Shown here: positions 1,769 through 63,228 of the stretch, piece after piece
Numbering within the stretch: the stretch's first letter is position 1
Layout of the letters: every line of letters begins with the position of its first letter
DNA from: Planctomycetota bacterium
GTDB lineage: Bacteria; Planctomycetota; MHYJ01; JACPTZ01
NCBI GenBank assembly: GCA_016192525.1
Contig: JACPTZ010000132.1
Coordinates: 4,202 to 68,201, forward strand
Direction of reading: 5' to 3'
Length of the DNA stretch: 64,000 nt
Position numbers and translations under genes: made by a program
Notes under the pieces: generated by a model
What the model was told of the DNA's origin: nothing
Databases searched by the model: none
Seen by the model: the letters and a program-made list of their open reading frames with translations, nothing else

Positions 1769-1799
1769 CAGGGCCCTTCAGTTCCTTCGGGCGCAGCTC

Positions 1800-1847: not shown

Positions 1848-1865
1848 CACGCAGTGGAGGTGCGG

Positions 1866-3375: not shown

Positions 3376-3391
3376 CGGAAGAGAACTCCTT

Positions 3392-15427: not shown

Positions 15428-15559
15428 GTCATCCTGAGCTCGCCCGCCTCCGGTCGGCGGGCGAAGCGAAGGATCACCAGCCTCGGCCCGGTCTGGGCGA
15501 TTCCGCGGACAAGCCCGGCGATCCTTCGCCTCGCCCCGTGGGGCGAGGCTCAGGATGAC
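15428..15559. repeat. 132-nt nested-palindrome intergenic element (REP/MITE-like or structured RNA)
   Basis: The outer arms GTCATCCTGAGC (15428-15439) and GCTCAGGATGAC (15548-15559) are complementary. The inner arms GAAGCGAAGGATC and GATCCTTCGCCTC are near-complementary (11 of 13 positions). There are also two small hairpins, GCCCGCC-TCCGGTC-GGCGGGC and GCCCC-GT-GGGGC. The right arm contains the stop codon of the 15550-19023 gene. Confidence 0.65.
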
Positions 15560-19070: not shown

Positions 19071-22000
19071 TCAGGGACCGTCTGCGGTCCGGTCCACATA
19101 GTAGATAGTCCCGTTGCTCGAGCCGACGATGACGAAGTGCTTGTAGCCAAGCCCTCCCGAGGCCGGCACGAAATAGTCCATCGCTACATCGCTCATCTTG
19201 TCGGTGGGCGCCCCCAGCTGATAGGTGGCCACGGTCGTCGGCGCGCCGGAAATGTCCACCACGAACAGCTTCCCGCCGTTGTTGGGGACATAGATCACGT
19301 TTCCATTCCGATAGACCCCCCCCTCAATCGGGGTGCTGTCGGTCGGGCCCCCCGGCCGGTACCGGGGCTGCAAGACGGCCGCCTGAAAGCTGAGTCCATA
19401 GAGATATCCGTAGCTGTCGGCGAAGTGCACCTGCCCCCAGAAGATGTCGGCCAGCCCCGTGACCGCCCCGATGTCATTGGGAGAGCCGGGAGCGTACGGC
19501 CAGTTGTAGCCGGCGTGGCCCGAGGCCACACCGAAATCCCTCAGATCGGTCGTCGGATAGGGAAGCGACGCCGCGTACTGCTGTCGTCCGTCCACCACGT
19601 GGAATTCGCTCCCGGTCGTGCCGACGAAGGCGGCTCCCGAGGAGCCGACGACGATGGCCGCGTTCACCGGGGCGTCCGTGATCGCGGTCATCTCAGGTCC
19701 GAGCGGGACCTTGACCTCGACGCCGTAGAGCGTGTTCGCGCCGATGAACATCCTCCACGGGAGCGTCAGCGTGTCGATGGCGGGAGCTGAGGCCACCGGC
19801 GAGGTCGGCGCGTTGACGAAGAAATACTGGGTGGGATCCGCGTGCACGCCGCTGTTGGCGGCATGGACCGAGCCGATCCCCGACACCCCGGCGAGCCTGG
19901 GCGAGCCCTTCACCGTGCTTCCGGTGGTGTGCTTCCGGGCCTTGACGGAGGTCCCCAGGGCGTGCGCCAGGGTCAGTCCCGAAACCCCGGTGAACCTCGG
20001 GGTGGGCGAGGTCGTCTTCCCCGTGTACGTCACCACCTCCTGACTCCCGCCGGTGTCGACCCAGAGGCTCCCGGAAGCGGCAAAGCCGGTGACGCCGACG
20101 ACCTGAATCACGGCATCGGAGGGATTGAGTGCCACCGACGTCGTCGTTTCATAGAGCCCGCCGCTGATTCCGGTGAATTTCGCCGTGGGGACCGATTGCA
20201 GTCCCGTGTACGTGACCGTGGAGACGGTTGAGCCCGTAGTGACGGTCATTGATCCCGAGGGAGGGTATCCGCTGACCGACACGACGGACAGTTCCGTGTC
20301 CGCGGGCAAAAGGTCCGCCGTGGTGGTGGTCGAGGGCGAGACATATCTGTCCGTATAGGTGACCACGTCGGCGGAGGCGCCGTCCATGATCCGGATCGTC
20401 CCGGCGCTGGGGAAACTCGTGACCGTATTCATGACAATCTCGGTGGCCCCGGGATTCGCCGGCAGACTGAGGGAACCGGAGGGGGCGCGGTAGGCGAACA
20501 ACCCGGCATCCGCCCCCTGGGACCCGCCGAAGAAGATGAAGTGGTCGCCGGCGGCATAATAGGCGTTCTCGTAGTCGTTCGAGAAGGGAACCACCGAGGA
20601 GGTGATCCCGTTCCCGACATCGATCGGGTTGGTCCCCCACGCGGCCCAGGGAACAAGGGCCGCTCCGGTGTTCACCAGGGCATAGAGCATCCCCGCGTCG
20701 GTGCCGATGAAGACGAGGCGCTCCCGCGGATTCACGGGGCTGGTGTCCCAGAAGGGGAGCCCGACGACGGCGCCGTTCGCGGATGGAATCGCGAACTCGA
20801 ACATGACGTTGCCGTACCGATCCAGGACGTACACGGCGTCGTCTCCGGTCCTCTTGGAGGTGACGTAGGTGGCATACCACTCGCCCGTGTCGAGATCGAA
20901 CGCCGGCGTCACGAACAGTTGCGGCTCGCCCTGCACGGCCGGAGCCACGCTCTCGGTCCACAGAACGACGGCCTCACCCGCCTGGGCCGGGGTCTCCAGG
21001 GTGTTGTTGCTGTTGACGTCGTTCTCCAGATCGAAGGTCTCCCCGGAACGGTCGGACGCCACCATGGAGGGGAATTCAAACCGGGCGATCAGGGTGGCGC
21101 CGCCCGACACGGAGGCATTGACATTGGTCCCCGCGGCGCTGTCGAAGGTGCAGTCCGGCGCTTTGAGATCCACGACAGCCCCGGGGGCGCCGCTCCGGAG
21201 AAGCGTCAGGGCGGTCCCTCCGGCGAAGTCGATGAAGGCGATCCCCTGGAGGGTGTCGGACTGGCTGCCGGAGGTGATGACCGCGGCGGCCTCGATGCGC
21301 AGGGCCGAGCTCCCCGCGGACGAGAGCCGGAGACCGTTCACGTCGAGCGTCCCGCCGACCGTCATGAAGGGGGGGGAGGCGGGCGCGGCCAGGCTGGTGA
21401 TGCCGGCGGACGCGGTCGTGATCTGGGCTCCGATCCCCCGGAAGGGGTCGGGCACGGCGGGGACGCCCCCGATTCCGGTGAGGGCGTTCGGGCCGGTGGC
21501 CGTCCCCGTGTAGGTCACCGCCTGACCGTCCACATAGACCGTTCCGGAGGGCGGGAACCCGAGGGTGGTGCCCACCTCGATGTTCCCGGTGTTGTCGGCG
21601 GAGGAGACCTCTTCCGTGGCCGAGGTCGCCGCCGTTCGGGTCGTGCGCAGGGTGCCGTTGATCGCCACGCCCTGGCCGCCGCTGATGCGCAGCGAGGGCG
21701 CGGCGGCAGAGGTGGCATTCATCAGGAGTGTCGCCCCGGCCGATGTCGCCAAACCAGCCGCGGTGAGCGTGGTCGTCCCCAGATCCAGGGTCCCGCCCAG
21801 GATCTCGACAAGGCCGGCCGCGGTGGTGTCTCCCCCCACGGTGACGGTCCGCGCCCCGGCATTGATCTGAATCCGGCCGTACGTCGCGGGGAACAAGGTG
21901 CGGTCGGTGCTGGAGTCCTGGTAGCGGCAGAGCGAAGTCGCCGCCATCGCAAAGGTGTCGGGGGCGGTGAACGCCGAGTTCAAGTTGAGCGTCCCCGCCC

Positions 22001-25000
22001 CGGTCCAGGTCAGGCTTCCGCCGCTCCCGTTGAACGTCCCGTTGCAGGTCAGCGTACCGGTGACGGCCGTGATGGCCCGAGTCCCGCTCCCGCCGAAGGT
22101 GAGGGTGGAACCCGCGGGAACCGTCACCGTGCGCACGTCGATGTTGAGCGTCCCCTCCGTGATCGTAAGTCCCCCCGAACCCAGGGTGAGATTGCTTCCC
22201 AGCGTCACGGTCTCGGAGGACTTGCTGACCTCGAAGGCGGCGATCGGCAGCGTTCCCGGAGTCGCGGTCTGGGCGACCGTTCCGGTCATGAGAATTTTCC
22301 CGGCCGACATGCTGATGGTGCCCGTATTGGCCAAATTTCCGTAAATCGAGAGGGTGTTCGCGGCGCTGATCGTGAGAATCCCGGTGGTGATCTGCAGCCC
22401 CCGGCAGGAGCCGGCGGCATTCAGGATCGGGTCGTTGGCCACGTTGAGAATGACGGCGTCGATCGTCGAATTGGGCACGCCGTTGTCCCAGTTCAGGCCG
22501 TCGGTCCACGCGGTGCCGTTGTTGCCGGTCCATCGCGTCGGAACGTTCCAGGAGATCTTCCCGCCGGCGACGGTGTCGGCCGCGCCGGTGGTGGAGTCCT
22601 CGTCCTCGGTGGAGTCGCCGCCGCCGGTGACGAGCGACATCGTGATCGTTCCGGTGTACTCAGGGCGGCAGGAGACCGTGAACTGGGATGTCCCGTCGAA
22701 GGTGCAGCCCAGGGACGAGAGGATCTGGGCCCCGGTGTACTGAAGGTTCAGGAACCGTCCCCCGACTCCGGTCCCGGAGGTGAAGACAACATCGTCCACT
22801 GCGGTGAAGGTCGAGGCGCCCCCGAGGAGAAGCCCCGAGGCGTCCGGATAGCTCAGGTTGAGTCCGGCGATGTTGACGGTCCCGTTGAGGGTGATTCCCC
22901 ACGTCGAGGTGGCGGTGCTCGTCAGGGTCGGCTTTACCGAGCTGGCGGTGGTGGTCTGGAAGGTGCCGTCCACCTGGACGGTGGCGCCCGGGGCCAGACG
23001 CAGGAACGTCCCCCCGGTGCTCCCCGCCAGCCGGAGCGTGGCGGCGGCGGCGACGGAGAGGTCGGGCGTGGCGCCGGTGTCGGTCAACGCAACCCGGCAC
23101 ACCCCCGGCGCCGTCACGAGCAGCGTGCCGTCGCTCACCGTCAGGGCGCGATTCACATCCACGGCGCCGGAGATCGTCGCGGCGCGTCCGGTCATGTTCA
23201 CCGAGAGATTGCAGTAGGTCTCGGGGGCGATCGTGAGATCGCCGCTGGTGCGGTCGTAGAGGACGGTGCTGGAGGCCCCGGGTTGAAGGTCGCCGAGGCT
23301 CGTCAGCGGTCCGCCGATCTGCAGGGTGGCGGCCCCGGTGAGGTTGATGAGGCCGGTCCCGTTCGCATTGAGGGTCCCGTTCGAGTCGATGGTCGCCGTC
23401 CCGGCGCGGAGTTCCTGACCGGAGGAGATGGCGATCGTCCCGGCGACCGTGACGGAATTCGCCCCGAGGCTGAGCACCCCGGAGGTCACGTTCAGGTCCC
23501 CCCCGAGGGTCAGGGCGCCGGCGGTGGTGGAAATGAGCCCCGATCCGCGATTCAGCGTGAGGTGGTGATAGTTGGACGGCGCGGGGACCTGAATCTGCTG
23601 ATCCCCGGCCGCCGCGGAGCGATACGAAACCGTGCAACCCGCGAAGGAGGTGAAGGTCCCGAGGCTGGTGACGCCGTTCCGAAGGATGAGGGAGCCCGTC
23701 CCCGTGAACGTGACGTTGGCCCCGCCGGCGTTGAAGGTGCTTCCGCTGTCCACGCTCCCCCCCGCGATCTGGAGCGTGGAGCCGCCGGAGACGGTCACGG
23801 TCCCGGTCACGGCGGCGCCGTAGGCGGAGGTGGCGAGCGTGCCGCCGCCGCTCACGGTCAGATTCCCGGCCACGACGATGGCCCCGCCGAGCGTCGCGGT
23901 CCCCGCCGTCTTCGGAATGTCGAGATGGTAGTACTGGGCGACGTTGTCGACCGTCTGAGCGCCTCCGGAGTTGTATCGTACCGTCCCCTGGGAGGCGGAG
24001 AGCGATCCGAGGTCGGTGACGGGACCCCCGAGCTCCAGGACCCCGGCGCCGGAGAACGAGATTGTCCCCCCCGTCCCGTCGAACGTCCCCGAGGCCAGAT
24101 CGAGCGTTCCCGTCCCGATCGCGAGGGTGGCGATGCTCGTGACGTCGCCCGCCACGTTGACGGTGGCGCTCCCGACGTCGAACGTCCCCTGATTCACGGT
24201 CAAGCTCTGCCCGATCGACAGGGTGAGCCCGGTCGGCGCCGAGGCGACGATCCCCATGCACTGAATGATCAGGTCGTTGTACCCGGTGACGCCGTTGCGG
24301 GAAATCGTGTGGTTCGAGTCGGACCGGGCGTAGCGCACCTGCCCGGTGGACGGGGTGAGCCACACGGTGGGATCGGCGGGGAAGGTCGTCGCCGCACCGA
24401 ACGTGACGATTCCCGATCCGGTGAAGACGATCGTGGCGCCGGAGACGATGGTGCAGGCGCCGTTGAAGTTCACGACCCCGGTGCTGAGCGACAAGGCGCC
24501 GGCGGAGAGATTGGTGGCGCCGGACACGATGAGGGTGTTCCCGTTGACGTCGAGCGTACCGGCGCCGATCGTCAGGCCGCCGCTCACCGTCACCGTCCCG
24601 GCGGCGGTATCCGCCGTGGCGCCGCTCCGGTTGATGGTCAGGTTGTAGTACGTGATGGCCTGAACCGTCTGGACCGGTCCAGCCCCGGCATCGTAGGTGA
24701 TCTTCCCGGTCCCCGGGGTCAGAGTCCCCAGGCTGCCGGCCGTCCCGCCGAGGCGCAGTTCGCCTCCCGTGTTGAACACGATCGCCGACCCCGCCCCGGC
24801 CGTGAAACCGCCGTTCACGTCGAGGATATGGTCCGTGGCCGCCGCAAAGGACAACGTCTTGTTGTTGGCGAGCGCGCCCCCGACCGTCACGGTCCGACCC
24901 GAAGCAATGGTGGTGTTCGACCCCGGCGCGGCGGCGATGGTGACGTTGTTGAACGAGGTCGCGACGGCGGCGCCGCCGATGGTCTGACTCGTCCCGTCGA

Positions 25001-33551: not shown

Positions 33552-33613
33552 CCCGATGTCTTCTCCCCCCCGACCGATCGCGCGGGACCGGCGTCACCCC
33601 GTTCCTTCCGCCT

Positions 33614-33766
33614 TCAGGACCCCTTGGTCCCTCCCCGTCGGATGCAATTGATCCCGGCCAGCTTGCCGCAGGCGAGCGCCGCCTCCTCTCCGAGGAACTG
33701 CGTCACGCACACCGGCGGCTGGTACTCCCGGCGGCCTCGGTCCGAGGGTCGGGCGCGACCTTTCAT
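33614..33766 (-). CDS. Possible small basic Cys-containing protein (50 aa), unknown function
   Basis: The ATG at 33764-33766 is preceded by GGGAGGA (an SD 8 nt upstream). Sequence: MKGRARPSDRGRREYQPPVCVTQFLGEEAALACGKLAGINCIRRGGTKGS. No family recognised; coding status is unproven. Confidence 0.3.
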   Translation of the reverse strand: MKGRARPSDRGRREYQPPVCVTQFLGEEAALACGKLAGINCIRRGGTKGS

Positions 33767-33838
33767 GAGCGATTCCTCCCGCGGCGAATCACGATCAGGG
33801 CCAGGAGAGAGCATCCCACACCGAGCCGCGTGTGGCCG

Positions 33839-34267
33839 TCATCGGTTCGAATCCGGGTGCGCCAGCGCCTCTTCGAGCCGGCCGGCGAGCTCCGGCTTCG
33901 CCAACGAACGGCCCAGATCAGCGGCCCAGTTCCGCGAGTACTCGAGGTTCAGATTCCCGCGCTGGCGGGACAAGACGCTGAATACATCCTGCTGATCCTG
34001 TGGACGCCACCACGCCAGCTTGGACAGAATGAGGTCCTCGGCGGACGCCACAGAGAAGTCGCATCCGACGATAGTGAATTTCCGGGTGCGTTGAAAAGCG
34101 ACCTCCTCATAGGCTCGACGAATGTGATCGAATCCGACGACGAGCAGGCCCTCGAAGATGCGGATCGTCCGCTCGGGCGGAGTCCGCCGCAGTTCTTCCG
34201 CCTCCTCGCGGGCGAGGGCCTCGTTGGAAAGCGCGCGTTGACGATAGGCTTCCGCGAGATCGATCAT
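33839..34267 (-). CDS. Hypothetical protein whose C-terminus resembles nucleotidyltransferase-fold (AbiEii/DUF-type) proteins; possibly a truncated remnant
   Basis: Start moved to the ATG at 34265-34267 because the track ORF (to 34492) overlaps the upstream gene. SAEDLILSKLAWWRPQDQQDVFSVL...LNLEYSRNWAADLG resembles the C-terminal half of small NTase-like proteins. No GS...DxD catalytic N-terminus is visible. Confidence 0.4.
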   Translation of the reverse strand: MIDLAEAYRQRALSNEALAREEAEELRRTPPERTIRIFEGLLVVGFDHIRRAYEEVAFQRTRKFTIVGCDFSVASAEDLILSKLAWWRPQDQQDVFSVLSRQRGNLNLEYSRNWAADLGRSLAKPELAGRLEEALAHPDSNR

Positions 34268-34334
34268 GCCGATGTCCCTGTCGTCGGAGAGAACTCCCAC
34301 TCGCCGGGAACGCGAAGAGGGTCGCCGCTCCAAC

Positions 34335-37757: not shown

Positions 37758-37766
37758 CTATCCATC

Positions 37767-58700: not shown

Positions 58701-61700
58701 GAGGCTCACGTCCAGGGTCGGTTGAAACGCTACGGCGGGGATGATGGCGTCTGTGTCCTGGGTGGGAATGCCCGCGCTCCAGTTCCCCGCCGTGTTCCAG
58801 GAGGTCGTGCCCGCGCCGCCGGTCCACGTGGACGAGAGGACCCACTTGATGCTGCCGGAGGCGGAAGCATCGGCGCCGCCGTCGCGGTCGTTCTCGGTCG
58901 CCGTTCCGCCCGTGGGCGAGAGGTTGATCGTCACAACCTTGCCGGCAGCCCAGGCGGGGTCCGTCCGAACCGAGTACGGCGGATACGTGGGCCCCAGGCC
59001 CTCGAATGTGAGCGTGCTGAACGTCAGGTTGACGGCGTTGACGCCGAGTTCGAGGTAGAGAAAGGCGTCCTCATCGGTACCCAGCAACGCCGTCTGGGGG
59101 TTCTTGAATGTGACGTTTCGGATGTCGATGTCCGTCGTCGCGGCGCCCGGGTTCAGATGGAGCCCTCGATTATTGCGCGTGTATACGCTGTCGAGCGTCA
59201 TCCCCGTGATCGTGACCAACCCTCCGGGATCGCTCTGAAGACCGACCTCGAAGCCGAAGCGAGTGGTCCCGGGGTTGTCGCTTCTGATCGTGGGGTAGAC
59301 CGAACCCGTATTCGACTGGAACGTCCCCCGGATGTCGATGACGGTCGTGTCCGCCATCGTGATAGATGAACCGTTGTTGCCGCCCTTGATCTCCAGCGTT
59401 GCCCCGGGCGACACGATCAGGTCCGGATCGGTGTTTCCCGCGACGAGATCGCCAATCACGGTGAGGTCGTTGGTGTCCTGGATCAGGAACGTACCCGACG
59501 AGACGGTCAACAGCCGGTTCACGGTGAAGTCGCCTCCGGCCGTGAGCGTCCGACCGGTCCCCGAGCTAAGGGTCAGGTTCCCGTACGCGACCGCCTCGAC
59601 GGTCTCGTTGGCCCCGGTGTAGTTGTAGATGACCGTACTGGACGTAACGCCATAGGTGAATGTCCCGAGACTGGTCACAGGGCCGGACAGTTCCAGGGTT
59701 CCCGCGCCCGTGAAGGTCACTTTCCCCCCGGTCGCGTTGAAGGTCCCGGCCACGTCGAGCATGCCGGCAGCTATCTTCACCCACCCACCGACGGTCGCGT
59801 TCCCGCCCACCGGGATCGATGTCCCGGAGACGTCGAAGATGCTGTCGAGGGCCCCGCTCTCCGTCACCGCCAGGTTGTTCGTCACGGAGAACGAGCCCCC
59901 GGCGGTCGCCGTCCTCGGCTTGTTGTCGATCGTGAGTTTGTAATACGAACCGCCGCTCGGCACGACGACCGTCTGGTCCCCCCCCGTGTTGTCGTAGACC
60001 ACTTCACTCTGCCCGATCGTGCACGTTCCCAAACTCGTCACCGCGGAGCCCAATTTCAGGATCCCGGTGCCCGTTCCGCCGAACGTGAGGGTTCGTCCCG
60101 CCATGTCGAACGCGGAGTCGACGTCGAGAGTGGACGAACCGGTGATCGAACTCTTGATCGTGAGAGAGGCTTCGGGATTCGACGATGCCCCGGGGGCGAT
60201 CGGGAACGCGGAGAAGCTCAACGCCGCCGTCTGACCGTTGTTGTCGATTTCGAGGTCGTAGTAGCGGACGTCGGCCAAGGTCTGATTCGCCCCCATGTAG
60301 CGGACGCGCCCCTGTCCGGCCTCGAAGGAGGCGGATGCGCCCAGGCCGATGACCGTCCCCCCCGTCACGTCCAATCGCCCCGTGCCCGCGACGCCGAACG
60401 TGACGGTTCGCCCAGCGGTGAGCGCGATCCCACCGCCGGCGATTAGGATTGAGGTTCCGGTCAGGGTCAGCGTTCCTCCGGAGGCGATCCCGATGTTCCC
60501 GGCCGACCAAGTGTCGATGATCGGAACCGAGGCCGTCGCGGTTCGCGCCGACTCGCTGCCGCCGCTCTTGTCGATCGTCAGATTGTAGTATCCGACGGCA
60601 GCGATGTTCTGTCCGGACGCGGCGTCGTTGTAGATCACCGTGCATCCGGCGAAGGCCGTGAAAGAGCCGCCCGCCCCCTCGGCCAGTTTCCCCGCGGCGC
60701 CGCCGAGGGTCAGCGTCCCGGCCCCCGTGAACGTAACGCTCCTGTTCCCCGCCCCGGTGAGGTCGAATCCCGCGTTCACGTCCACCGTAGAGGCGCCGCC
60801 GATCGTCAGCGTGGGGTTCCCCGTCGTGTCGCCGTTCCCCAGCGTCGTCTGGTTGATCGTGAAACCGACCGTCGCCGTCTGCCCCCCCGTCACCGACAGG
60901 TTGTAGTAGTTCACGCCGGCCACGGTCTGCGCCGCTGCCGAGGCGTAGTTCACCGTCCCCTTCCCGGCCGTGAACGTCCCGAGACTCGTCACCGTGGAGT
61001 CCAGTTGCAGCGTCCCGGTGGCAGTGGGCACGAACATCACGGTCCGACCGGTCGCGTCGAACCCCCCGGTCACCCGCGCCGTGGCCGGTCCGGAGATCGC
61101 GAGCCCGTTCATGAGGTTCGTCGCCGTCACGGACCCGACGGTGACGGTGTTCGCCAGGCCGCCGGCGATGCCGATCTCCAGGTTGTAGTAGTTCTCCGCG
61201 GGGACCGTCAGCACTGTGGCCGCGGTGTACTGAACGGTCCCGTTCCCCGCCGTGAATCCCAGGGCGGACCCGAGCGACGTGACGGCCCCGCGGAGGATCA
61301 ACCGGCCCGTCCCCGCCGCGCCGAAGGTCAGGATCTTGCCGGTTCGATCGAACGAGAACGTCCCGGTCACGTCCACCACGGAGGCCCCGGAGATCGTGAG
61401 GCTGTTTTCGACGCTCGTGGTCGTCACGTTGAACCCGATCGACGCGGTCCTCCCGCCGTTGTTCGCGGTCAGGTCCCAGTAGTTCGCCGTGTAGACGGTC
61501 TGGTCCGACGCCGCATTGTCGTAGATCACCTCGCTCGTCGAGCGGGTGAAGACGCCGAGATTCGGCGCCGGGTCTCCGCTCAGGTAGAGCTTGCCCGCCC
61601 CCCCCGTGAAGGTGACGATACCTGTGGTATTCGCCGTGAACAGGCCGTTCGCGTCCACCGTGCCGGTCGAGATCCTCATCTCCTTCAGCGCGGCGACCGA

Positions 61701-63167
61701 GGTGTCACCGGCGATCGTGATCGTGTTCGCCCCGACCGTGAGTATCCCGTTCGTCACCGTCAGGTTCCCGCTCAACGAGAGGTTCTGCCCCAGGGTGATG
61801 ACCTTGCCGGCGGTCGCGGGGTTGATCAGGACGCTGTTCAACTGGTAGGACATGTCCGTGTTGTTGATGGACGACACGGTGTACTCGGACGTGGGAGGGG
61901 CGAAGGAGATCGTGCCTTGGGAAACTGCGGAACCGGCCGAGACGGAGATGGGGTTGACGGCGTCATCGCGCGTCAGCGTCGTCGTGAACGCGCCATCGTA
62001 CAGGCCGCCGTTCACGGCAAAGGCGCTCGTCACGGTGATGTCCCGCGCGAGCGTCGTGCCTTCCCCCGGACTGGCTACGTTGAGGTTCTGGAAGTTCGGG
62101 TTCGAGAAGCCGGAAATGAAAGCCTGTCCGGGCCACGAACCGGACATGGTCACCGTGTTGAGGTTGCCGCCGTTGCTCGCGAAATACGTGGCCGCCCCTG
62201 TCCTTCCACAAACGAAGTCATTCCCGATCGTGTGGGAGGTGTCGGGGTTGGCAGCCGCCTTCCCCGTCCCGCGAACGGTGGTGCCGGCCTCGATGATGAA
62301 GTCCTTCTTGCAGTTCAGGTTCAGGTTGAGCACGATGTCGACGCCCGCGGGCCATCGAACGCGAAGGGTGTGAAAGGCATCCTGGATCCCCGTGATGTCC
62401 TTGTCGTTGGCCGGGGGGGGGGGAGGGCCGTCGATGAAGAGTTCGACGTTGTTGATCGTGGCGCCGGCGGTGACGTTCAAGCCGTCGTCGTTGTAGGTCA
62501 GTTTGATCGTGCGCTCCACCGGGGGATTCTCGAGTTTGACGTCGAGAATGCCCGAGCCGATTCCCAGGATGTTCTTGCAGGTGATGTGCGAGGCCAGGCG
62601 GGTCGTAAAAGGCGGATTACCACCGGACGGGGCGAGATTCAGCGCGAAGAACTGATCGCCGATCCCCACTCCGGGGCCGGCCGCAAGGGGATCCGCGACG
62701 TCGATTCCCTTGATCTCGCCGGAACCCGAGAAGGTGACCGTGCCGCCGGTGGAGTTGAACGCGACACCGGAGTTGTTCGTCCAGTTACCCAGGACCGTGA
62801 TGGTGTTGCCTCCCTGGGTGAGACGGCCAGTGGCCTCGAGAAGAACGTTGCCCGGGGCGCTCGTGACATTCAGGTTCTTGTTCGTGACGCTGAGGGTGAT
62901 GGTGTTGCCGGCCGCCGTCCCGATCGTCAGACTGGCGACGGCATTTGTGTCGATGTTGACCGAGATTATCTTCGCCGCCGCCCCCGCGGTGTGATCGAGA
63001 ATCACATTGTCCCCAGCGGCGGGTACCCCGGGGGGACTCCAATTGCCCGCGGTGTTCCAGTTGCCGTTCCCGTTCACGTTCCACGTCTTGTCCGCGGCCT
63101 CCACGGGGCAGGCCGCGAGCCAGGCGCCGAAGATCGCGATGAGTAGATAGGGCCAACGGCTGGACAT
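37767..63167 (-). CDS. Giant secreted repetitive beta-solenoid-like protein, 8,466 aa (8 concatenated modules plus a C-terminal beta-propeller-like region)
   Basis: Uninterrupted 25.4-kb ORF with ATG at 63165-63167 and a GAGG SD 11 nt upstream. The N-terminus MSSRWPYLLIAIFGAWLAACPVEAADKTW is a signal peptide with both a lipobox-like LAAC and an A-x-A-type site. The composition and ~100-aa repeat are the same as in the 4,826-aa paralog. It ends ...IIVGTKNGTIYYVDP. Confidence 0.88.
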   Translation of the reverse strand: MSSRWPYLLIAIFGAWLAACPVEAADKTWNVNGNGNWNTAGNWSPPGVPAAGDNVILDHTAGAAAKIISVNIDTNAVASLTIGTAAGNTITLSVTNKNLNVTSAPGNVLLEATGRLTQGGNTITVLGNWTNNSGVAFNSTGGTVTFSGSGEIKGIDVADPLAAGPGVGIGDQFFALNLAPSGGNPPFTTRLASHITCKNILGIGSGILDVKLENPPVERTIKLTYNDDGLNVTAGATINNVELFIDGPPPPPANDKDITGIQDAFHTLRVRWPAGVDIVLNLNLNCKKDFIIEAGTTVRGTGKAAANPDTSHTIGNDFVCGRTGAATYFASNGGNLNTVTMSGSWPGQAFISGFSNPNFQNLNVASPGEGTTLARDITVTSAFAVNGGLYDGAFTTTLTRDDAVNPISVSAGSAVSQGTISFAPPTSEYTVSSINNTDMSYQLNSVLINPATAGKVITLGQNLSLSGNLTVTNGILTVGANTITIAGDTSVAALKEMRISTGTVDANGLFTANTTGIVTFTGGAGKLYLSGDPAPNLGVFTRSTSEVIYDNAASDQTVYTANYWDLTANNGGRTASIGFNVTTTSVENSLTISGASVVDVTGTFSFDRTGKILTFGAAGTGRLILRGAVTSLGSALGFTAGNGTVQYTAATVLTVPAENYYNLEIGIAGGLANTVTVGSVTATNLMNGLAISGPATARVTGGFDATGRTVMFVPTATGTLQLDSTVTSLGTFTAGKGTVNYASAAAQTVAGVNYYNLSVTGGQTATVGFTINQTTLGNGDTTGNPTLTIGGASTVDVNAGFDLTGAGNRSVTFTGAGTLTLGGAAGKLAEGAGGSFTAFAGCTVIYNDAASGQNIAAVGYYNLTIDKSGGSESARTATASVPIIDTWSAGNIGIASGGTLTLTGTSILIAGGGIALTAGRTVTFGVAGTGRLDVTGGTVIGLGASASFEAGQGRVRYMGANQTLADVRYYDLEIDNNGQTAALSFSAFPIAPGASSNPEASLTIKSSITGSSTLDVDSAFDMAGRTLTFGGTGTGILKLGSAVTSLGTCTIGQSEVVYDNTGGDQTVVVPSGGSYYKLTIDNKPRTATAGGSFSVTNNLAVTESGALDSIFDVSGTSIPVGGNATVGGWVKIAAGMLDVAGTFNATGGKVTFTGAGTLELSGPVTSLGTFTYGVTSSTVIYNYTGANETVEAVAYGNLTLSSGTGRTLTAGGDFTVNRLLTVSSGTFLIQDTNDLTVIGDLVAGNTDPDLIVSPGATLEIKGGNNGSSITMADTTVIDIRGTFQSNTGSVYPTIRSDNPGTTRFGFEVGLQSDPGGLVTITGMTLDSVYTRNNRGLHLNPGAATTDIDIRNVTFKNPQTALLGTDEDAFLYLELGVNAVNLTFSTLTFEGLGPTYPPYSVRTDPAWAAGKVVTINLSPTGGTATENDRDGGADASASGSIKWVLSSTWTGGAGTTSWNTAGNWSAGIPTQDTDAIIPAVAFQPTLDVSLGECASLSIPTGTLTLNNSANTLKVYGDLSVAAAGALNMTAGTITFSGEGDQRGIDPGGTAPGDGRLANLVIDKPGGVAVLLANMTVAGNVTMTFGTFDVGSSTLRVDGALQTSGGTGTLKIGSGTVDANGTFNLNGGAVDFTGSGRLQLGADLPSGGLGTPFGAGTGTVSYDGTADQTIRTSGIAYNNLEIDKSSGTASTGTAADLVVNGLLWLKAGTLVAGKAMSLNGAFEMDAGTFTAGSHAHTIKGNFTHDGGTFDAGAGTFTFGGTSTQTVGGTAPTAFNILTIASGATARVNTSAAAVTVTAGGTLTINSTGALEIAADRRLIASGSVTGGGSLTFLAGTWSVEALTASSDFNLTGPLTFTGNATLRLDGTVTSLSSTPFAATTGTIVFGGSGGQTVPTSQFTYWNLTIDKTAGTAAGSATATLDVNGAFEVKNAGNFSAGNALDVEGALTMSSTGTFTLGTQNLNLAGSFDHSAGTFSVSSGLVTLDGAAQNFGGAAATSLASLTVAGTGTKTVNGAVTVGSGSALAVNSTLDVSGVTFTVDGSTAVSGTLNLQASGVFDANGSFTASGGFVNFPGAGTLRLAGTVTSLGTLDGGSGTVRYDGSFAQDVRAVTYNILEIAKGGGSTGTASGTFTVQRSLTVSSGVFAVGGNTVTVNTLSGSTTIADGATLTLPATGILDVTGAFTADSPAGAPTGAVAFTGAGTLRLRGSVASLGSFTSVSGSTVSYRSTSPGDQQILVPAPSNYANLTLNRAVGLESTPAGGLTISGNLTVTAGTLNLAALGISVAGNITVGADGTLKASGGTVHLDGTFDASAGAVDFSPAPGTATLELDGPVTGLGTFTAGSSLVVYQDTASAQTLRPATYYDLRVNASGQTVTASTAATIAVGGVCTVRAGTLLLPGSSTTEVTGAMEVTGGGELDLAGTATLRLGASLSIGTASTANGVLTSAVSSGTPTITRLAPATSFAFTVRNDGRVNLAGLNIEYLDGDGLRLLGDSSVSSVMGGIAFANVATIAVNYGYTSFLNVRISRSTSLSGAILATDTTIGATSTGSFPSSGTLRIDAEEMNYSSTTAGTFEGVTRGVNGTAADAHNSGAAVRLVTKYQFSDCSFTSVNPLAAPPQYNVASAGIDFTGGIELLSATGPGSGATYENDSENPGTVNPGEITWPVAILWTGANSTAWGTRQNWSTGAVPTANDNVRIDDKVNDPTLNITVASTSLTADLTIGGGTATVVSTAGFPAEGSLLIDSEAMRYTGTTATTFTGLVRGVNYTTAAAHTSGAQVWLGGCKSLQITNGRLTISAANTLEIYGDFTVESAGVLNMTAGTISLRGSANQTFDPGGTAAGDGRITNLTVDKTGGTATLSTDTTVSGALTLTAGTLNVGSVTLTVNGATTSPDGGAAALLRIGTGTFDANADINISTAAPTDFLTCVGTSTIRASSSVTRLGSFTASTGTFIYDGGANATILTAGTTYYNLTLGKAAGVTATVPDGGTLNVTNDLTLSTGNLDSDAVPATTNVTINLTRDFILGAGAGTYYTRNATVNIGRDFTHNGGTFDSVTSGGSSLFTFDPPSSATQVIGGAVNTSFNSVTIASDSDTTIASGLTIAVNGTLTNNGTLTFANASNHLLDVNGPFDGAVGSTVVFTAGGELRLGGSALLRSLTAGSGTITYDSGGAQSVEALTFYSLKIDKAGGTATANAGTLTVGVGGTLTVSNGMLDLATNAATLKVDGSALLSDNGGAPIAQVTVSDGVSAGVLDLNGACTIQAGALIVFGAFAGGRVDFGGAATFPADPTVWLTPGSGTIRFNRVDASFGISRNGATGYNHLAIETQNTPTNVTASAPAGLTLTVGGALAIVKGTFDVTTATVNVAGGVTNASKLNLGTGAGSGVVDLAAGSTFDGTGGTLMFASGGGALYLSGSVTDLGTLNATAGTVVYDSTADQTVDAVTQYYNLTIAKTGGTATLGSGSTAVAGALTVSDGGFDVGANTLTVTGATNLSDTTPPAGGTVSISTGVLDLNGSSTIAGSTNGNKNLVFTGIGRVDFGGATTFPADPTVWLTPGIGGTVRYDRTGADFTFSRNGTTGYRHLTFAITSTNTASAPAGALTIAGNLTITTGIMDLSAAGATISVAGNLAIADGHELKANTGETIDVTGSVNANATGKMTFTGAPVLKLRGAVTSLGTTASFTAGSGTVQYLGTVDQTMAAVDYQNLLIDNAGFTVTLNGTATADGTLTVTAGPPARTLALAGGSDLRVTGNVTVNASSTLTLTNACTLRVGNASTLQVDGTFAASGTSPNLPTVTSTNPGTDRYGFVLNGAVTVDGLNVGSTNASGMVIGATSTLTGNNLANVKFSYGVDPGGVWLNFQTTSAGPFNVTAVTFPGSDFAQYNVRTPSTYAASTVLMGQSPGARSGATYEDDFFNPPGTGGTQTPGSIEWIMLRTWTGGTVGFERNWTTAANWNPSDSYPLAGDDVVIPNLLYDPQLNVPAACRNLTISGGAPVEFQDGGTLDVKGNASVAGSIGMAAGMKLVFSGTGTQNFTPGGSEYLNVEVNKTTGLVVLTGSPGNLTVSNELTLTKGTLDVGAKTLTVGAGAGAGDMTIKGEGTLQIGTGTADGHGAFDASAGGAVTFTGTGRLELGGGVPLNGLGNFTAGTGTVSYDGAADQTIRTLNVVVPYDYNNLEIAKAAGTTGTTGASAALKVGGTLRIVTGNLTAGAAIDANGAFVMESNAGTLNLGSSSHTFAGNFAFDGGAITPVTSLVTFDGGAQAIGGTAPSAIPFYSLAIAPGSTTTLNHSASVASLGSLTVSGELTISTSYTFTANGAATIAGTLTLSGATPVFDAAGSFNATGATVTFGAAGTGTLRLGGAVTSLGAVFTAGNGTVVYRNQAAGSTILTSGIAYHHLEVDTSGMTANAQAAAVLDVNGGFALTSGTFVANNALDIEGALTLNGGTFTLGGQTLNLAGDFSHAAACTFTAPTGLVTLDGAAQGFGGTAASTSLASLTVAGTSVKTISAAVAIGASSSLTVNSTLDISGATVTVDGTSSTSIGGTLNLQAGGTLDADGAFTAAGGFINSPGAGTLRLAGAVTSLGTFSGGTGTVRYDGVSDQSVRDVSYNNLEIVKGASTGTATGTFSVGGTLTVTSGTFSTGANAVTVTGAATIEDNATLRITTGSLDVGGAFTADAPAGGPPTGAVIFSGAGTLTLRGSVSSLGSFTSASGCTVAYRSTAAGDQQVLVPAPSNYANLTLNRAAGLTSTTAGALTISGNLTVTAGTLDLAALGITAGGGLSVGASGTLKAAGGTVHVDGTFDATGGTVDFSPGAGNATLELDGPVTSMGGFTAGNSLVVYQDTGSAQTLRPATYKNLKVSASGQTVTASTAATIAATGTCEVSTGTLSLPGGSVLEITGAAGVTGNGTLALSGTAILRLGLSLSIGTATANGVLTSAISGGTPTITRLAPAASYAFTVQNGGRAALDGLNLEYVNGDGLRLLGNASASCDVDRVAFSNVSTTPVTYGYACCLKVEREINPATFQFSECSFAATTPFNVATPAGFLTSVEMLSASGAGAGASYENDNEGGSVTPGRITWPVYIIWKSPNPGGTTAWDTGSNWSGGAVPTNANNVRIPLGDGGRNPTLNATPRDCKSLLITTGTLNITAANTLNVYGDITVLSTGALNMTAGTIALLGDANQTLDPGGTTVGDGRIANLTVNKTGGMAILATDTTVAGAFTLTEGTLDIGTATLTVNGATTSSVGGTVATLKVGTGTFDANGDINISAAAPTDYLTCTGASTIRASSTVTALGSFSPGSSNFIYDGVGAQTIRGALGSYWDLTIAGSSPGTVEGGVTLTVSNDLTVSSGTLDGNDASDPAISIGRDLVLSGGTYLARDAFVTILRNFTHNGGTFTAGGGGPGASQFIFDGTTQGIGGTSTSTTFVDLTIPLGSDTTIASNRTVTVSGTLTNDGTITFSAATADYVLDVNGTYAVAAGSVYFAPTADGTLRLGGPVSLGSLTAGSGTVVYDSGGAQSVEPLTFYNLRIDKAGGTATADAGTIAVGGTLTVSNGTLDLATNAATLRVTGATTMTDNALAPIAQITVSDGVSGGLLDLDGSCTIQAGALIVFGAFAGGRVDFGGAATFPADPTVWLTPGSGTVRFNRADASFGISRNGATGYNHLTIETQSIPTNVTASAPAGLTLTIGGSLAIVKGTFDVTTATVNVAGSVTNASKLNLGTGAGSGVVDLAAGSTFDGTGGTVTFAPGGGTLYLSGPVTDLGTLNATAGTVQYDWDANQTVDTVTQYYNLTIAKGLNSTALLGGTTSVAGALTVSDGGLDVGSNTLTVTGATSLSDTTPPAGGTVSISTGVLDLNGSCTISDSTNANKNIVFTGTGRVDFGGAVAFVPGATVWLTPGTGGTVRYDRTGADFTFSRNGATGYRHLTFAITSTNTASAPAGALTIAANLTVTTGIVDLGANNATIGGNLSVADGQEVKAATGSTIDVTGSANANATGKMTFTGTPVLKLRGAVTSLGTTASFTAGSGTVQYLGTLDQTMAAVDYQNVLIDNAGYTVTLNGTATADGTLTVAAGPPARTLALAGGSDLRVTGNVTVNASSTLTLTNACTLRVGAGSTLQVDGTFSASGTSPNFPTVTSTNPGTDRYGLTLNGTVTVDGLNVGSTNASGMAIGGTATLTSYNMSNVKFSYGVDPGGVWLNLQTTQPSGANPLNITGCEFPGANPATYNVRTPNAAPYTTDSTVLMGNSSGGRSGQTYEDDRVGGTITPGSIEWIVTRTWAGGNNVGGDANANGILDQFDWIIPANWTPGDNFPQAAEDAIIPNQFYDPRLGASVSCRNLIVNVFAPVEFLWGGVLNVNGHLTNSGSFTAAATTLSAPMGTGDSVANVVSTGAFADSGTLRIDSEDMTYTAKTGNSFTGLTRGAPASHTNGAAVILDAKLAFTGTGAQNFTPGPGPGPGGYLNIELDKTSGSVALTGAPGSVTVSNNLTIKQGTLDINSRACTVGGILNFPGPGVTRAITLTSGTLTCNGTLNGTGGTITNTGGGAGALVIGGSVSSLGTYAPGANGICSYSNQTSNSSIFPFAGYNRLQVNVNVKIATLGGDATAGGLVQVFSGTMDLGTSTLTANNGLDVSAGATLRLQAGAALPTPTLAVASGKTVTVLGTFLSRQSATPIKPSVTGAGPFAFVVDPPGTIDVDGLDFGFANANGLYARTGATIAQLNNVSFHDTFSPGGTGVRLDDGVSGNLNFAFCDFAALAAGDYNIFTSNPPFAGTVTMSFPSGLGGTVAYERDGETSPATGAATGDIRWPTARTWTGANGTTAWNDPLNWSPSDNYPQPADDLLIAAGANPDPTLNIATGDGRNLWMTGRTLTLPAGATLQLTGSLLKSGGTIGADPTSVLRLYGTAGQTLNAGGSTLGALEIDKTSGAVAIPFPGTTAVGGDLRLKQGTLPILNATVTVGGVFSKAGAAGGTRTLTVENSVFTVGGSFDATDITLTVVTGGSTTININGPPVSLGTFTPGQSLVVYGAPSSDQNLLTAAGWNYYRLKIACGATYKVTMSATDSVTGGTWPATPSLEVTSGTLSLDPSGADFTLSVTEGLKVSAGATLRLQGEDSPARRPTLAIGSGRGAQIDGKIVTLLFPNPPAPKPKITRSGGGRYSFTVSAGGEVEIEGLEMEWADVNGLNIASPNSVTVISDIEFANGDPSPYGTYMRFGATGPARKPTISACKFSGGAELVGPPPGVPNTTTPVFNITTASGFFSVLLARLYVSYPTGNMVPGGDGEVNENDEEFSPTGLTGTGTVAAASIVWLPFRAWTGDDSTDWFDPDNWTPRGTTVEIVDAADNVDGTIEVNSLRGFPDPAKPGNPAPPYSVQITTGGVPDTITYTGVATGPLRLTGVAGVDDSHPVASSVLSVPGYLVDIDDIPGEDIAVAYPASTRLPAIGPSATAECRSMLVRDSTPNATLTLNATCTLRIGGTLRTLETGGAAGILDPAGTALIRFIGDATSTFTAPNGDDLPSLMLDLSDTTQTVTPIGDPGITGNLTVNGGILERGSGMTTVSGIVSYGAVGTRIIRIRDGTLSVGGAWNGANGTLEFTGVGTLEFAGTCTVTSPLAATSFVPGSGTVLYSQTADCVVGTATYGKLDIGVSAGVVATLAGDSTVDAPGLLRVLSGTLDLGTAILTLKDSLTVSAGATLRMRDLTDDAASRPVLAIWNTKAVTVNGTIQTSTVDPGDWFDWPTVQGAIPNTDRFGFSVASTGTVNINGLNFNSPNATGMFLDQCGTFTSLARVRFLNAPAGGAHLRVTKSAALSLFCSRCYFDDSFLAGGKNVIVSDPALGSDLRLTFEDDAADTANGPGSGEANDSDDDADDDGISDGGGGVVYWVPRGNDEVLGENQLFPSGAFDLDSGDFLGTYAVQRIAGDDIIYLLDIDGEVIGQVTVSDATYGALAGLVWWDTLYFGDGVASTFTEETVDSADLAGGAADPDGTEGDIEVTSTAGFDPSGGAAFVGDVLVYYSGLDTAPERLTGVTNISGSQASSSPVGSAKTRNVAFIGTEGGWLLMLEYVPATLTLTLAKAWDLTGYPVTKISTAIIGLIEGNSCGYHMMFGGEVPDGGDAGTDPDRNMFALCLRLIDVPDGAIVNPDFVWGGGATYQTQRSDPAASGPYLNAGASFSSLGAAPAVDSAGIRTSWLVQMGASNAAIDCARGELSSAGFNFTAGWGSSGGADDKIIDAPIAYRGTDGRVYAGTYDKLDASLVGQFVGLDARISTSTDTDEAVSSADQSVGGDGTIEVADTAGWPSSGQLSIGGEVITYTGIASSPTPRFTGIGTITGSYAVDAVVSRPYAAVSGFPVSLIDGVTTLGGVKRLPDIWGDSYGPYVGTYNGYLVRISAAGGAIGPGQALALGGTNASSAPLVINLGPGLRAYIGNDAGTLYVVDVAPDPPAAMTIVKRYQLGSSPLTDISAQDDWDGLGPMIAQIIVGTKNGTIYYVDP
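44394..51389 (-). repeat. Bi-module super-repeat, copy A (modules 4+5 of the 8,466-aa protein)
   Basis: Delimited by the junction Trp codons at 51387-51389 and 44391-44393. It is collinear with 51390-58826. Antisense track ORFs recur at offsets of ~6,990-7,450 nt (e.g. 45154 vs 52147, 45985 vs 52984, 48190 vs 55636). Confidence 0.75.
44630..46650 (-). repeat. High-identity core of the intragenic duplication (copy A)
   Basis: I aligned 44641-45300 against 51631-52290 by hand (offset 6,990) and roughly nine positions in ten are identical. Similarity drops on both sides of ~44630 and ~46650. Confidence 0.8.
51620..53650 (-). repeat. High-identity core of the intragenic duplication (copy B)
   Basis: Partner of 44630-46650; see the manual alignment described there. 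Confidence 0.8.
52964..52974 (-). repeat. 11-nt homopolymer (C11 on plus strand, G11 on coding strand) inside the 8,466-aa ORF
   Basis: Counted directly: gcg + ccccccc | cccc + gacgcg. It encodes S-GGG-A within FASGGGALYLSG. The duplicated copy at ~45970 has the run broken up (ccctcccccc). Confidence 0.9.
62413..62423 (-). repeat. 11-nt homopolymer (G11 on plus strand, C11 on coding strand) near the 5' end of the 8,466-aa ORF
   Basis: Counted directly: ccgggggggg|gggaggg. It encodes PPPPP (aa 248-252, FIDGPPPPPANDKD). The paralog has FFVDGPAGAGSK here, with no tract. Confidence 0.9.
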
Positions 63168-63212
63168 GTTCGCGGTCGCCTCAACGGATAGTGCAACTTG
63201 GACTTATGGAGA

Positions 63213-63228
63213 GGCAAAAGGCATACCG
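63213..63228 (-). promoter_or_regulatory. Candidate sigma-54 (-24/-12) promoter upstream of the 8,466-aa gene
   Basis: The minus strand reads CGGTATGCCTTTTGCC: GG and TTGC at canonical spacing, and G at consensus position 7. The -24 box is weak (CGGTAT vs TGGCAC). It lies 44 nt upstream of the ATG, implying a ~33-nt leader that contains the GAGG SD. Confidence 0.35.

Follow-up and report, generated by a model that had tools for sequence, protein, structure and literature searches.

Two paralogous giant genes of a Planctomycetota-labelled genome, each followed by a propeller partner with a candidate surface anchor

Genes longer than 5 kb were found in 29 of 29 Planctomycetes genomes and genes longer than 20 kb in 15 of the 29, the largest measuring 36,239 bp (PMC5177795). 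More than 90% of giant bacterial genes code for surface proteins or for polyketide synthases and nonribosomal peptide synthetases, according to Reva and Tummler as relayed in the same paper. In Omnitrophota, proteins of at least 30,000 residues are on record (bioRxiv 10.1101/2023.11.21.568195). As to surface anchoring, the MYXO-CTERM tail of Myxococcus proteins is thought to be lipidated at its Cys residue and is cleaved by the CPBP protease MrtX, and the protein gets to the surface by type II secretion (via the T2SS) (PMC11980579). Giant repetitive surface proteins represent a large unannotated share of environmental bacterial genomes, and how those that are devoid of an anchor are retained usually goes unexplained. 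Here, we analysed a window of 64,000 nt (contig JACPTZ010000132.1 of the assembly GCA_016192525.1, positions 4,202 to 68,201), from a metagenome-assembled genome (MAG) labelled as a Planctomycetota bacterium. It harbours two paralogous giant genes, A and B, each of which precedes a smaller gene, called C1 and C2, respectively (Table 1).

Giant surface genes of Planctomycetes and beta-solenoid adhesins are already known, and the 25.4-kb gene A is large, not exceptional. An earlier reading of the window, made from the sequence alone (hereafter the sequence-only reading), placed its product among the largest bacterial proteins, which was an overstatement in view of the Planctomycetes and Omnitrophota records above. 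What is new is a module family with no Pfam or NCBIfam model and a conserved cassette composed of a putative docking propeller and a propeller partner with a predicted anchor. We lean towards the view that A and B are giant adhesive beta-solenoid fibres that leave the cytoplasm by the Sec pathway and that the anchored partner retains, in trans, at the cell surface.

Table 1. Features of the giant genes, of their partners and of the adjoining peptide open reading frame (ORF). Positions refer to the window. Signal peptides were read from the sequence, with no predictor.
Feature	Position (nt)	Strand	Length or residues	Description
Gene A	37767..63167	(-)	8,466 aa	ATG start; 842 kDa; pI 4.35; predicted modular beta-solenoid with C-terminal propeller
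Signal peptide of A	63093..63167	(-)	aa 1-25	Signal-peptidase-I-type site between VEA and AD
Module A1	58827..63083	(-)	aa 29-1447	Cap, then a solenoid region, six or seven repeats of ~100 aa and a junction domain; N-terminal module, 55% to B1
Module A2	55173..58826	(-)	aa 1448-2665	B2/A4-like (57%); holds the G8 match
Module A3	51390..55172	(-)	aa 2666-3926	74% to A5, 44% to B3
Module A4	47955..51389	(-)	aa 3927-5071	A2/B2-type duplicate
Module A5	44394..47954	(-)	aa 5072-6258	A3/B3-type duplicate
Modules A6, A7	41295..44393	(-)	aa 6259-6791 (A6), aa 6792-7291 (A7)	Short, ~500 aa each
Module A8	37770..41294	(-)	aa 7292-8466	Weakly B4-like; short solenoid, acidic linker, propeller with inserts
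Partner C1	34335..37757	(-)	1,140 aa	Starts 9 nt after the A stop
Choice-of-anchor U in C1	34539-34814	(-)	aa 982-1073	NF041766; 83.8 bits, cut-off 32
C1 tripartite sorting tail	34338..34436	(-)		GGGC-FVREIGRQGPFG-VVFLWVAGLLLWVG-RRR
50-aa ORF	33614..33766	(-)	50 aa	62 nt upstream of B; MKGRARPSDRGRREYQPPVCVTQFLGEEAALACGKLAGINCIRRGGTKGS; resembles precursors of ribosomally synthesized and post-translationally modified peptides (RiPPs)
Gene B	19071..33551	(-)	4,826 aa	GTG start; 479 kDa; paralogue of A
Signal peptide of B	33447..33551	(-)	aa 1-35	Site in ...LFAAA/KTW; no Cys
Module B1	29307..33437	(-)	aa 39-1415
Module B2	25929..29306	(-)	aa 1416-2541
Module B3	22533..25928	(-)	aa 2542-3673	Modelled with AlphaFold2
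Module B4	19074..22532	(-)	aa 3674-4826	Carries the propeller
Partner C2	15550..19023	(-)	1,157 aa	Starts 47 nt after the B stop
Choice-of-anchor U in C2	15793-16068	(-)	aa 986-1077	NF041766; 89.5 bits, cut-off 32
C2 tripartite sorting tail	15553..15687	(-)		GGGC-LVETTGSGPAGSS-LLWLALAALGMSISL-RTRRR...

The partners share 54.6% identity, and both are composed of a signal peptide, a PQQ_2/BamB propeller (112.5 and 122.9 bits, for a Pfam cut-off of 27.6), a TSP3 Ca-binding repeat, a choice-of-anchor U domain and a sorting tail. A weak beta-helix match in C1 and a weak fn3 match in C2 both remained below the Pfam cut-offs. Choice-of-anchor domains by definition directly precede C-terminal sorting signals, and the tails of C1 and C2 start within ~40 residues of them. 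The tripartite design of MYXO-CTERM tails, with an invariant Cys residue, a transmembrane helix and an Arg cluster, is present in both proteins. An ending of the form G-G-C...hydrophobic...RRRR was found in 15 of the 15 partner homologues listed, several of which are from Polyangia and were named MYXO-CTERM proteins by JGI. The sequence-only reading, which passed over both partner genes, considered that the export and anchoring of the giants could not be read from known families; since the partners harbour choice-of-anchor U domains followed by such tails, anchoring can plausibly be deduced. Each giant gene lies close upstream of its own partner gene, and each pair is therefore probably one operon. 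After the stop codon of C2 (15440-15550 (-)), we noted two G+C-rich hairpins without T-runs, GCCTCGCCCC-ACGG-GGCGAGGC and GCCCGCC-GACCGGA-GGCGGGC, at which transcription of the B-C2 unit may end.

We searched the giants themselves for known export and anchoring signatures. Pfam and NCBIfam scans covered all of A and B at E <= 0.01, with E <= 1 for the C-terminal 3,466 residues of A and for both C-terminal ends (640-676 residues), and four Pfam pieces were scanned at E <= 10. Nothing beyond a partial G8 match was detected over the two full-length proteins. The autotransporter barrel (PF03797) gave no Pfam match in B or in either half of A at E <= 0.01, no two-partner secretion (TPS)/haemagglutination-activity domain was matched at the N-termini, and no HemolysinCabind match indicative of RTX repeats was found in either giant. 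For the sorting domain of the type IX secretion system (T9SS; TIGR04183), NCBIfam returned 0 families for B (E <= 0.01) and for the C-terminal 3,466 residues of A and both ends (E <= 1), and there was no NCBIfam match to LPXTG, PEP-CTERM or GlyGly-CTERM on the giants. In the window, no TpsB gene was found among the ORFs scanned against Pfam, there is no ABC exporter or membrane fusion protein (MFP), the ABC_tran match being to UvrA only, and no type I secretion system (T1SS) or T9SS genes are present. A ends with ...GTIYYVDP and B with ...YYVDRTADGP, and neither end harbours a hydrophobic helix or a basic cluster. The absence from the giants of an autotransporter barrel, TPS domain, RTX repeats, LPXTG, T9SS C-terminal domain and PEP-CTERM, noticed in the sequence-only reading, was thus borne out by these scans.

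At their other end, both giants have N-termini that resemble signal peptides, as had been proposed, and the first cap directly follows the signal peptide in each. Their first 450 residues share 55% identity and include the motifs quoted earlier for this closely related region (KTW..NW..GVPAAGD, ASHITC, LRVRWP and GNDFVCGRTGA). We considered the ASHITC/GNDFVCGRTGA region as a possible catalytic domain and rejected this idea, as the part of the relatives P0109 and P0120 that aligns with it is a further repeat of solenoid type and is devoid of those Cys and His residues. Given that these residues are not conserved, the ASHITC/LRVRWP/GNDFVCGRTGA region is unlikely, judging from the alignments, to be a catalytic or a special export domain.

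The C-termini of the giants were analysed with a profile built from five clean relatives. In the PDB, this profile matched designer 'Cake' propellers (6e-58 at best), the PQQ-repeat protein 3hxj (7e-13) and BamB (6e-12 to ~1e-11). On B, it covers residues 4211-4397 and 4571-4824 (nt 19074-20921), with the propeller split by an insert of ~175 residues (nt 19842-20360) made of small 'YTG...FTG' domains. The match on A is weak and fragmented (E 4e-8; region ~aa 7830-8466, nt 37770-39680). The propeller-like appearance of the C-terminal regions was recognized before; these profile matches identify the domain as a BamB/PQQ-type beta-propeller. BLAST comparisons of the giants' C-termini with the partners gave no matches, and the two are related at the profile level only, as PQQ-like blades.

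The pairing of a protein that ends in this propeller with a PQQ partner encoded downstream of it was found in five loci beyond the window, in other assemblies. In locus L082 (GCA_973514835.1), an ORF cut by the contig end and coding for a B-like propeller overlaps the partner gene by 4 bp. The same 4-bp overlap was found in L083 for a 938-residue protein made of a junction domain and a propeller (E 1e-14 to B). A LamG and propeller protein precedes the partner by ~3 nt in L085 (Polyangia, GCA_036498765.1), and in L089 (GCA_031082105.1) the distance is ~125 nt between the partner gene and that of P0108, a protein of 1,918 residues with A/B-type modules. Lastly, in L086, the gene of a 502-residue propeller protein is located ~380 nt from the partner gene. 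The Cys- and Arg-containing ending described above is present in the partner of L085 and not in that of L086. Thus, the N-terminal payload varies, being made of beta-solenoid modules or LamG, and the propeller and partner are constant, which fits with the C-terminal propeller of the giants being a docking module. In L085 (1-8349), a second large LamG gene follows the partner gene, and this locus may have a tandem arrangement like that of the window with a different payload.

One relative appears to dispense with a partner. P0116 (2,779 residues; locus L087, GCA_016190175.1, JACPRC010000202.1, 10001-18340) has a GGGC(G)-TM-RRRRR tail of its own, where TM denotes the transmembrane segment, and no adjoining partner gene. 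It fuses solenoid modules, a propeller, an Ig-like domain and the tail. By analogy, P0116 supports the idea that an anchor is a required function that may be supplied in cis or in trans. The region that follows its propeller shows no BLAST similarity to C1 or C2, so that this argument is one of analogy and not of homology. The P0116 gene is preceded by a weak exosortase-EpsH-like gene and by one of the ParA/AAA_31 type; downstream of it is a HEAT_2 gene.

The bulk of both giants is modular. A cap motif, W-x-G...W...NW...P...D-x-V/I, recurs every ~1,130-1,420 residues and marks the module starts, which gives eight modules for A and four for B. Each module comprises the cap, followed by repeats of ~100 residues and by a junction domain. 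Using a hidden Markov model (HMM) made from six units, we counted 33 copies of the repeat in A and 19 in B, of the form ...G-x-G-x-L-x-L-x-G-x-V-T-S-L-G-x-F-T-x-G-x-G-T-V-x-Y...Q-T-V...Y-Y-N-L-x-I. The junction domain, ...P-T-I-T-S...F-x-V...G-L-N-L-x-Y...G-L...F...C-x-F...Y-N-V...Y-E-x-D...I-x-W, closes each module and runs into the next cap. With its profile, no relative emerged from Pfam or from the PDB, where the best E was 0.024. The partial G8 match (PF10162; 29.8 bits, cut-off 22.9) is located at residues 1463-1529 of A (nt 58581-58781) and covers positions 2-68 of the 124 of the model, which correspond to the cap part; no other module of A and none of B has a G8 match in Pfam.

Module identities are 55% between A1 and B1, 52-57% among A2, A4 and B2, 74% between A3 and A5 and 44% between these two and B3; A8 is weakly similar to B4. 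Based on these relationships, A derives from a B-like ancestor with four modules, in which the pair of modules 2 and 3 was duplicated and two short modules were gained. Domains of ~68 residues are inserted in A at residues 2527-2594 (nt 55386-55589), 2712-2779 (nt 54831-55034) and 6350-6419 (nt 43911-44120), all on the (-) strand. Their matches among the PHROGs are to tail-fibre, baseplate-wedge and virion proteins of phages, with E values of 6e-10 to 1e-7. These inserts sit at or near module junctions and follow the pattern G-x-L-x-I-D-x-E-x-M-x-Y...F-x-G-x-x-R-G...H-x-x-G-A. The C-terminal propeller of A and that of B also contain degenerate copies of them.

Among the modules, B3 was modelled with AlphaFold2, from an alignment of six paralogous modules. 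This model, with a mean predicted local distance difference test (pLDDT) score of 77.8, is all-beta with 132 short strands, and the autocorrelation of its strands peaks at 7 and at 20-21 residues. These peaks correspond to three strands per coil of ~21 residues, and the model thus supports a predicted three-sided beta-solenoid with ~21 residues per turn. Foldseek searches of B3 against the PDB gave nothing at E <= 1e-3, all matches having E > 0.03. The top, non-significant neighbours are all beta-helical proteins: the passengers of SepA, EspP, EspC, Ag43 and TibA, along with PL6 lyases, a beta-helical antifreeze protein and RsaA. In BFVD, nine matches were obtained at E <= 1e-3, down to 8e-7; these are fibre proteins of cyanophages and giant viruses, with annotations such as S74 tail fibre or 'baseplate wedge initiator'. 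In both giants, G, T, A, S, N, V and L make up ~70% of the residues and K, R and E ~5-6%, as was seen in the sequence-only reading, whose proposal of a beta-solenoid fibre or adhesin is in line with the predicted all-beta fold, its 20-21-residue periodicity and its beta-helical neighbours. With coaxial stacking of the modules, B would form a rod of ~95 nm and A one of ~176 nm.

Taken together, these features suggest the following mechanism. The giant and its partner would both cross the inner membrane by Sec. The tail of the partner would then be processed at its Cys residue and the partner displayed on the surface, by analogy with MYXO-CTERM proteins (lipidation, cleavage by a CPBP-type protease and type II secretion). 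The displayed partner would hold the anchor-less giant through its propeller, and the resulting surface fibre, of ~90-180 nm if its modules are stacked coaxially, would serve adhesion or contact. We infer the giant-partner interaction, the outer-membrane route, the surface display and the adhesive function from the features described above.

Several observations weigh against this scheme. TIGR03901, the MYXO-CTERM model, was not matched by the full-length partners or by their isolated tails (NCBIfam, E <= 10), which is why we call the tails 'MYXO-CTERM-like' and do not regard them as members of that family. Their sole match was to the CFI-box NF041763, below threshold (12 bits, for 15.9). In addition, MYXO-CTERM has been described as restricted to Myxococcota, and the MAG analysed here was labelled Planctomycetes by its submitters. 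The 64-kb window harbours no gene for a CPBP protease and no T2SS (Gsp) gene, and a folded rod of ~100 nm or more is hard to square with the type II secretion of folded substrates. A lipobox-like LAAC is present at residues 17-20 of A (63108-63119 (-)); A might thus be lipidated at its N-terminus and anchor itself. At the aligned position, B has Thr and no Cys. The AlphaFold2 model of the last 640 residues of B had a pLDDT of 54, only the terminal blades being confident, and was left out of the fold search. The TM-scores of B3 in Foldseek are low (0.1-0.2), as expected for long rods that differ in curvature. The solenoid class consequently rests on strand periodicity and weak neighbours rather than on a confident superposition, and the modelling supports the fold class and not membership of a family. 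Finally, the relative P0112 has neither a tail nor an adjoining partner, and the partner homologue P0009 has no propeller protein upstream.

Of the other explanations, an unlikely one is that the partner is a BamB-like assembly or export helper of the periplasm or outer membrane, which would chaperone, fold or pass on the beta-strands of the giant, with the giant released or held in another way, for instance by an N-terminal lipid in the case of A. The partners match the BamB model TIGR03300 at 77 and 112 bits, far under its equivalog cut-off of 285. The gap of 9 nt between A and C1 would suit a dedicated helper, which is typically encoded beside its client, and the LAAC of A would provide the lipidation site, which B lacks. 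With ~1,150 residues, a TSP3 repeat, a choice-of-anchor U domain and a sorting tail, the partners look like displayed surface proteins, unlike BamB with its ~390 residues. That P0116 has its own tail in place of a partner also points to anchoring, more than assistance in assembly, as the shared need.

Alternatively, the giants might be released, as matrix, sheath, S-layer-like or prey-contact factors, with the partner an independent surface protein that is merely co-regulated. The lack of an anchor signature on the giants is consistent with this, as are the release by the T2SS of TraA without its MYXO-CTERM (PMC11980579) and the presence of the S-layer protein RsaA among the weak Foldseek neighbours. 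Nevertheless, the pairing is kept in at least five other loci despite the changing payload, and overlaps of 4 bp and gaps of 3-9 nt suggest coupled expression over loose co-regulation. We thus consider release improbable, and anchoring in trans by the partner continues to be the reading that we favour.

All of this presupposes that the ORFs are intact. Neither A nor B has an internal stop codon. The G+C content at the three codon positions (GC1/GC2/GC3) is 0.57/0.57/0.88 in A and in B, a strong coding pattern for a window of 68% G+C and one that is confined to these two frames. Given the base composition, the probability of no stop is ~1e-80 for 8,466 codons and ~1e-46 for 4,826 codons. A and B are collinear, with 44.7% identity over ~4,990 columns and many off-diagonal matches because of their internal repeats; their description as paralogues in the sequence-only reading is therefore correct. 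In the 19-63 kb region, the longest exact DNA repeat is 77 bp, and the most similar long repeat, between modules A3 and A5, is 3.2 kb at 80% DNA identity. An independent Logan contig (run SRR12113401, L081) is 100% identical over 13,081 bp to positions 31577-44657 of the window and spans the last 2,296 codons of A, all of C1 and the first 655 codons of B. B is also found intact in NCBI, as MBI3098717.1, a 'hypothetical protein' encoded on a 71,275-bp contig of a MAG that bears the label Planctomycetes bacterium. For A, the first ~6,170 codons are known from the present assembly alone. The assembly of the locus looks sound, and the two uninterrupted ORFs of the sequence-only reading were confirmed at the positions given in Table 1.

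It is very improbable that the ORFs are artefacts of the assembly or of its annotation, such as chimeric or collapsed repeats, or pseudogenes undergoing decay, as the short-read origin of the MAG, the absence of the exact sequence of A from a collection of 15 billion proteins and the likeness of A3 and A5 might suggest, considering the stop-free lengths, the GC3 of 0.88 throughout, the shortness of the exact repeats, the Logan and NCBI matches and the same-module homologues in other MAGs. The G+C content of the window is 64-70%, and long shadow ORFs abound. Those that overlap the giants in antisense or off frame reach 2,135 residues (antisense to B, 20541-26948 (+)). Antisense stop-free stretches in register with the third codon positions of the giants likewise have a high GC3. 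The long antisense and off-frame ORFs result from the high GC3 that the real frames have, and we do not regard them as genes.

Just as improbable is that a characterised secretion family (type V/TpsA, RTX/T1SS or T9SS cargo such as SprB) includes the giants as divergent members, since the resemblance of the predicted solenoid, among PDB entries, to autotransporter passengers before all others and the presence of the cap motif where large proteins of Flavobacterium, Verrucomicrobiota and Planctomycetota begin are set against PDB matches that all have E > 0.03, a C-terminus that is a propeller and the lack of the corresponding domains in the giants (E <= 0.01 over the full proteins) and of TpsB, ABC/MFP or T9SS genes in the window.

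To define the distribution of the family, a profile made from residues 1-1,100 of A and B was searched exhaustively with HMMER against 1.84 billion cluster representatives. There were 1,159 matches at E <= 1e-3, mostly to the cap alone, 71 at 1e-10 and 14 at 1e-30. The strongest ones are B itself and a handful of proteins of 1,100-4,400 residues, often truncated, with the same repeats; the named strong relatives are all 'hypothetical proteins' of MAGs labelled Planctomycetota. A scan of the genomes of 185,579 species representatives yielded relatives by the cap motif only (residues ~1-150), in many phyla. Based on these numbers, the giant family is real, rare and unannotated. A word-indexed search with the N-terminal 450 residues gave one marginal match, low-complexity words swamping the candidates.

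The genetic environment of the two pairs includes small ORFs. The 50-aa ORF upstream of B has a motif, ...P-Y/x-x-P-x-V-x-T...L-A-C-G-K...C, in common with 46-residue peptides encoded next to relatives of the giants or partners in two other MAGs (L088, 6743-7020; L082, 11355-11495). In these loci, genes for a methyltransferase, PqqD and radical SAM/SPASM proteins come after those of the peptides, as in a RiPP-like cluster. The pattern [LIVM]ACGK near the stop did not occur elsewhere in the 1.41 Mb of fetched loci, the LACGK peptides had no NCBIfam match, and a literature search on SynChlorMet found nothing. A 142-aa ORF between C1 and the peptide ORF (33839-34267 (-)), for which a gene was likewise predicted in the Logan contig, weakly matches the nucleotidyltransferase-like DUF6036 (E 3.6e-4; 20.8 bits, cut-off 23.6). 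Directly upstream of A, a gene cut by the window end (63616-64000 (-)) codes for a HEAT_2-repeat protein (E 2e-20). HEAT_2 genes are also found beside the relatives in L082, L084 and L087, and in L084 the HEAT_2 gene heads a ScmC-PqqD-radical SAM/SPASM operon; for this reason, the ~7 kb of the source contig that lie outside the window may hold genes of the ScmC/PqqD/radical SAM type.

These neighbours enter into a wider proposal, which we put forward as tentative. In it, docking between propellers would tether otherwise anchor-less payloads, either giant fibres or lectin-like proteins, to a partner processed by a sortase, the resulting in-trans display unit is common to Planctomycetota-labelled MAGs and Polyangia, and it is perhaps tied to the radical-SAM/SPASM-PqqD-methyltransferase cluster and the 'LACGK' peptides.

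Downstream of C2 (7088-15378 (-)), we found genes for a sigma-54-dependent response regulator (13924-15378) and a Ser/Thr kinase with TPR repeats (10039-12747), as well as for an NTP_transf_5 protein (8450-9808) and, at 7088-7990, a TPR protein. Genes for sigma-54 activators or Ser/Thr kinases with TPR repeats recur near the relatives in L082, L086 and L088. A candidate sigma-54 promoter upstream of A (GGTATGCCTTTTGC, ~63225-63238), considered in view of the sigma-54 activator gene downstream, had four mismatches to TGGCACG-N4-TTGCW and was dropped; at three mismatches or fewer, there were 28 matches in the window, compared with 64 in the shuffled sequences. Sigma-70 and terminator scans of 33400-34500 and 63100-63700 were uninformative. 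Further away, the 180-6873 region codes for a protein of the orotidine monophosphate (OMP)-decarboxylase family, a DUF486/DMT protein, a PIN-domain protein and UvrA. With such housekeeping neighbours, the locus is chromosomal rather than part of a phage or plasmid.

For one family of giants, this locus offers a testable answer to the question of retention, namely a terminal propeller on the giant and a co-encoded propeller partner with a predicted sortase-type anchor. Three unannotated units lend themselves to family models: the cap with its ~100-aa solenoid repeat, the junction domain and the C-terminal, putative docking propeller. The analyses also extend MYXO-CTERM-like Cys sorting tails and choice-of-anchor U domains to Planctomycetota-labelled genomes. 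Should docking prove to be a wrong idea, the locus provides another pair of very large hypothetical adhesins.

Among described systems, the Omnitrophota giants (bioRxiv 10.1101/2023.11.21.568195) are likewise very long, largely unannotated and secreted, with beta-helix segments and a proposed role in attachment. They differ by their sizes of 30,000-85,000 residues, their SecA-like, peptidase and transmembrane domains and their T2SS- or pilus-like loci, none of which was seen here. Phage tail fibres and baseplate proteins share with the giants the fibrous BFVD neighbours and the ~68-aa insert domain found in PHROGs. Unlike those, A and B are in a cellular context (UvrA, OMP decarboxylase), with Sec signal peptides and no phage genes present. 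As for the eight-bladed BamB/PQQ propellers, the N-terminal domains of the partners pass the PQQ_2 cut-off and the C-terminal family of the giants matches by profile. Unlike BamB, a lipoprotein of ~390 residues, the partners have extra domains and a putative C-terminal anchor and score far below the equivalog cut-off. As further differences, the propeller of A and B is interrupted by small inserted domains, and there is no sign of pyrroloquinoline quinone (PQQ) binding or of a dehydrogenase function.

The tails of C1 and C2 resemble those of MYXO-CTERM proteins such as TraA, with its myxosortase MrtX (PMC11980579), by their Gly-rich segment with Cys, their helix and their Arg cluster. They differ by a spacer of ~12-13 residues between the Cys residue and the helix, which is charged in C1, by their location on the partner rather than on the giant, by the lack of a TIGR03901 match and by the Planctomycetota label of the host. 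The type V adhesins (Ag43, TibA, the SepA/EspP passengers and FHA) have in common with A and B a predicted rod and repeats rich in G, T, A, S and N, and they are the best, weak PDB neighbours. In contrast with them, A and B have no barrel, TPS domain or TpsB, end with a propeller, are built of cap, repeat and junction modules and are 5-10 times larger. Lastly, giant genes as known from Planctomycetes and from other bacteria (Reva and Tummler 2008; Fuerstia marisgermanicae) are likewise large (over 5 kb, often over 20 kb), repetitive and poorly annotated and mostly code for cell-surface proteins, and the present MAG is labelled Planctomycetota. Unlike those genes, the A/B family is rare, with 14 matches at E <= 1e-30, falls outside Pfam and NCBIfam coverage and comes with a dedicated partner gene.

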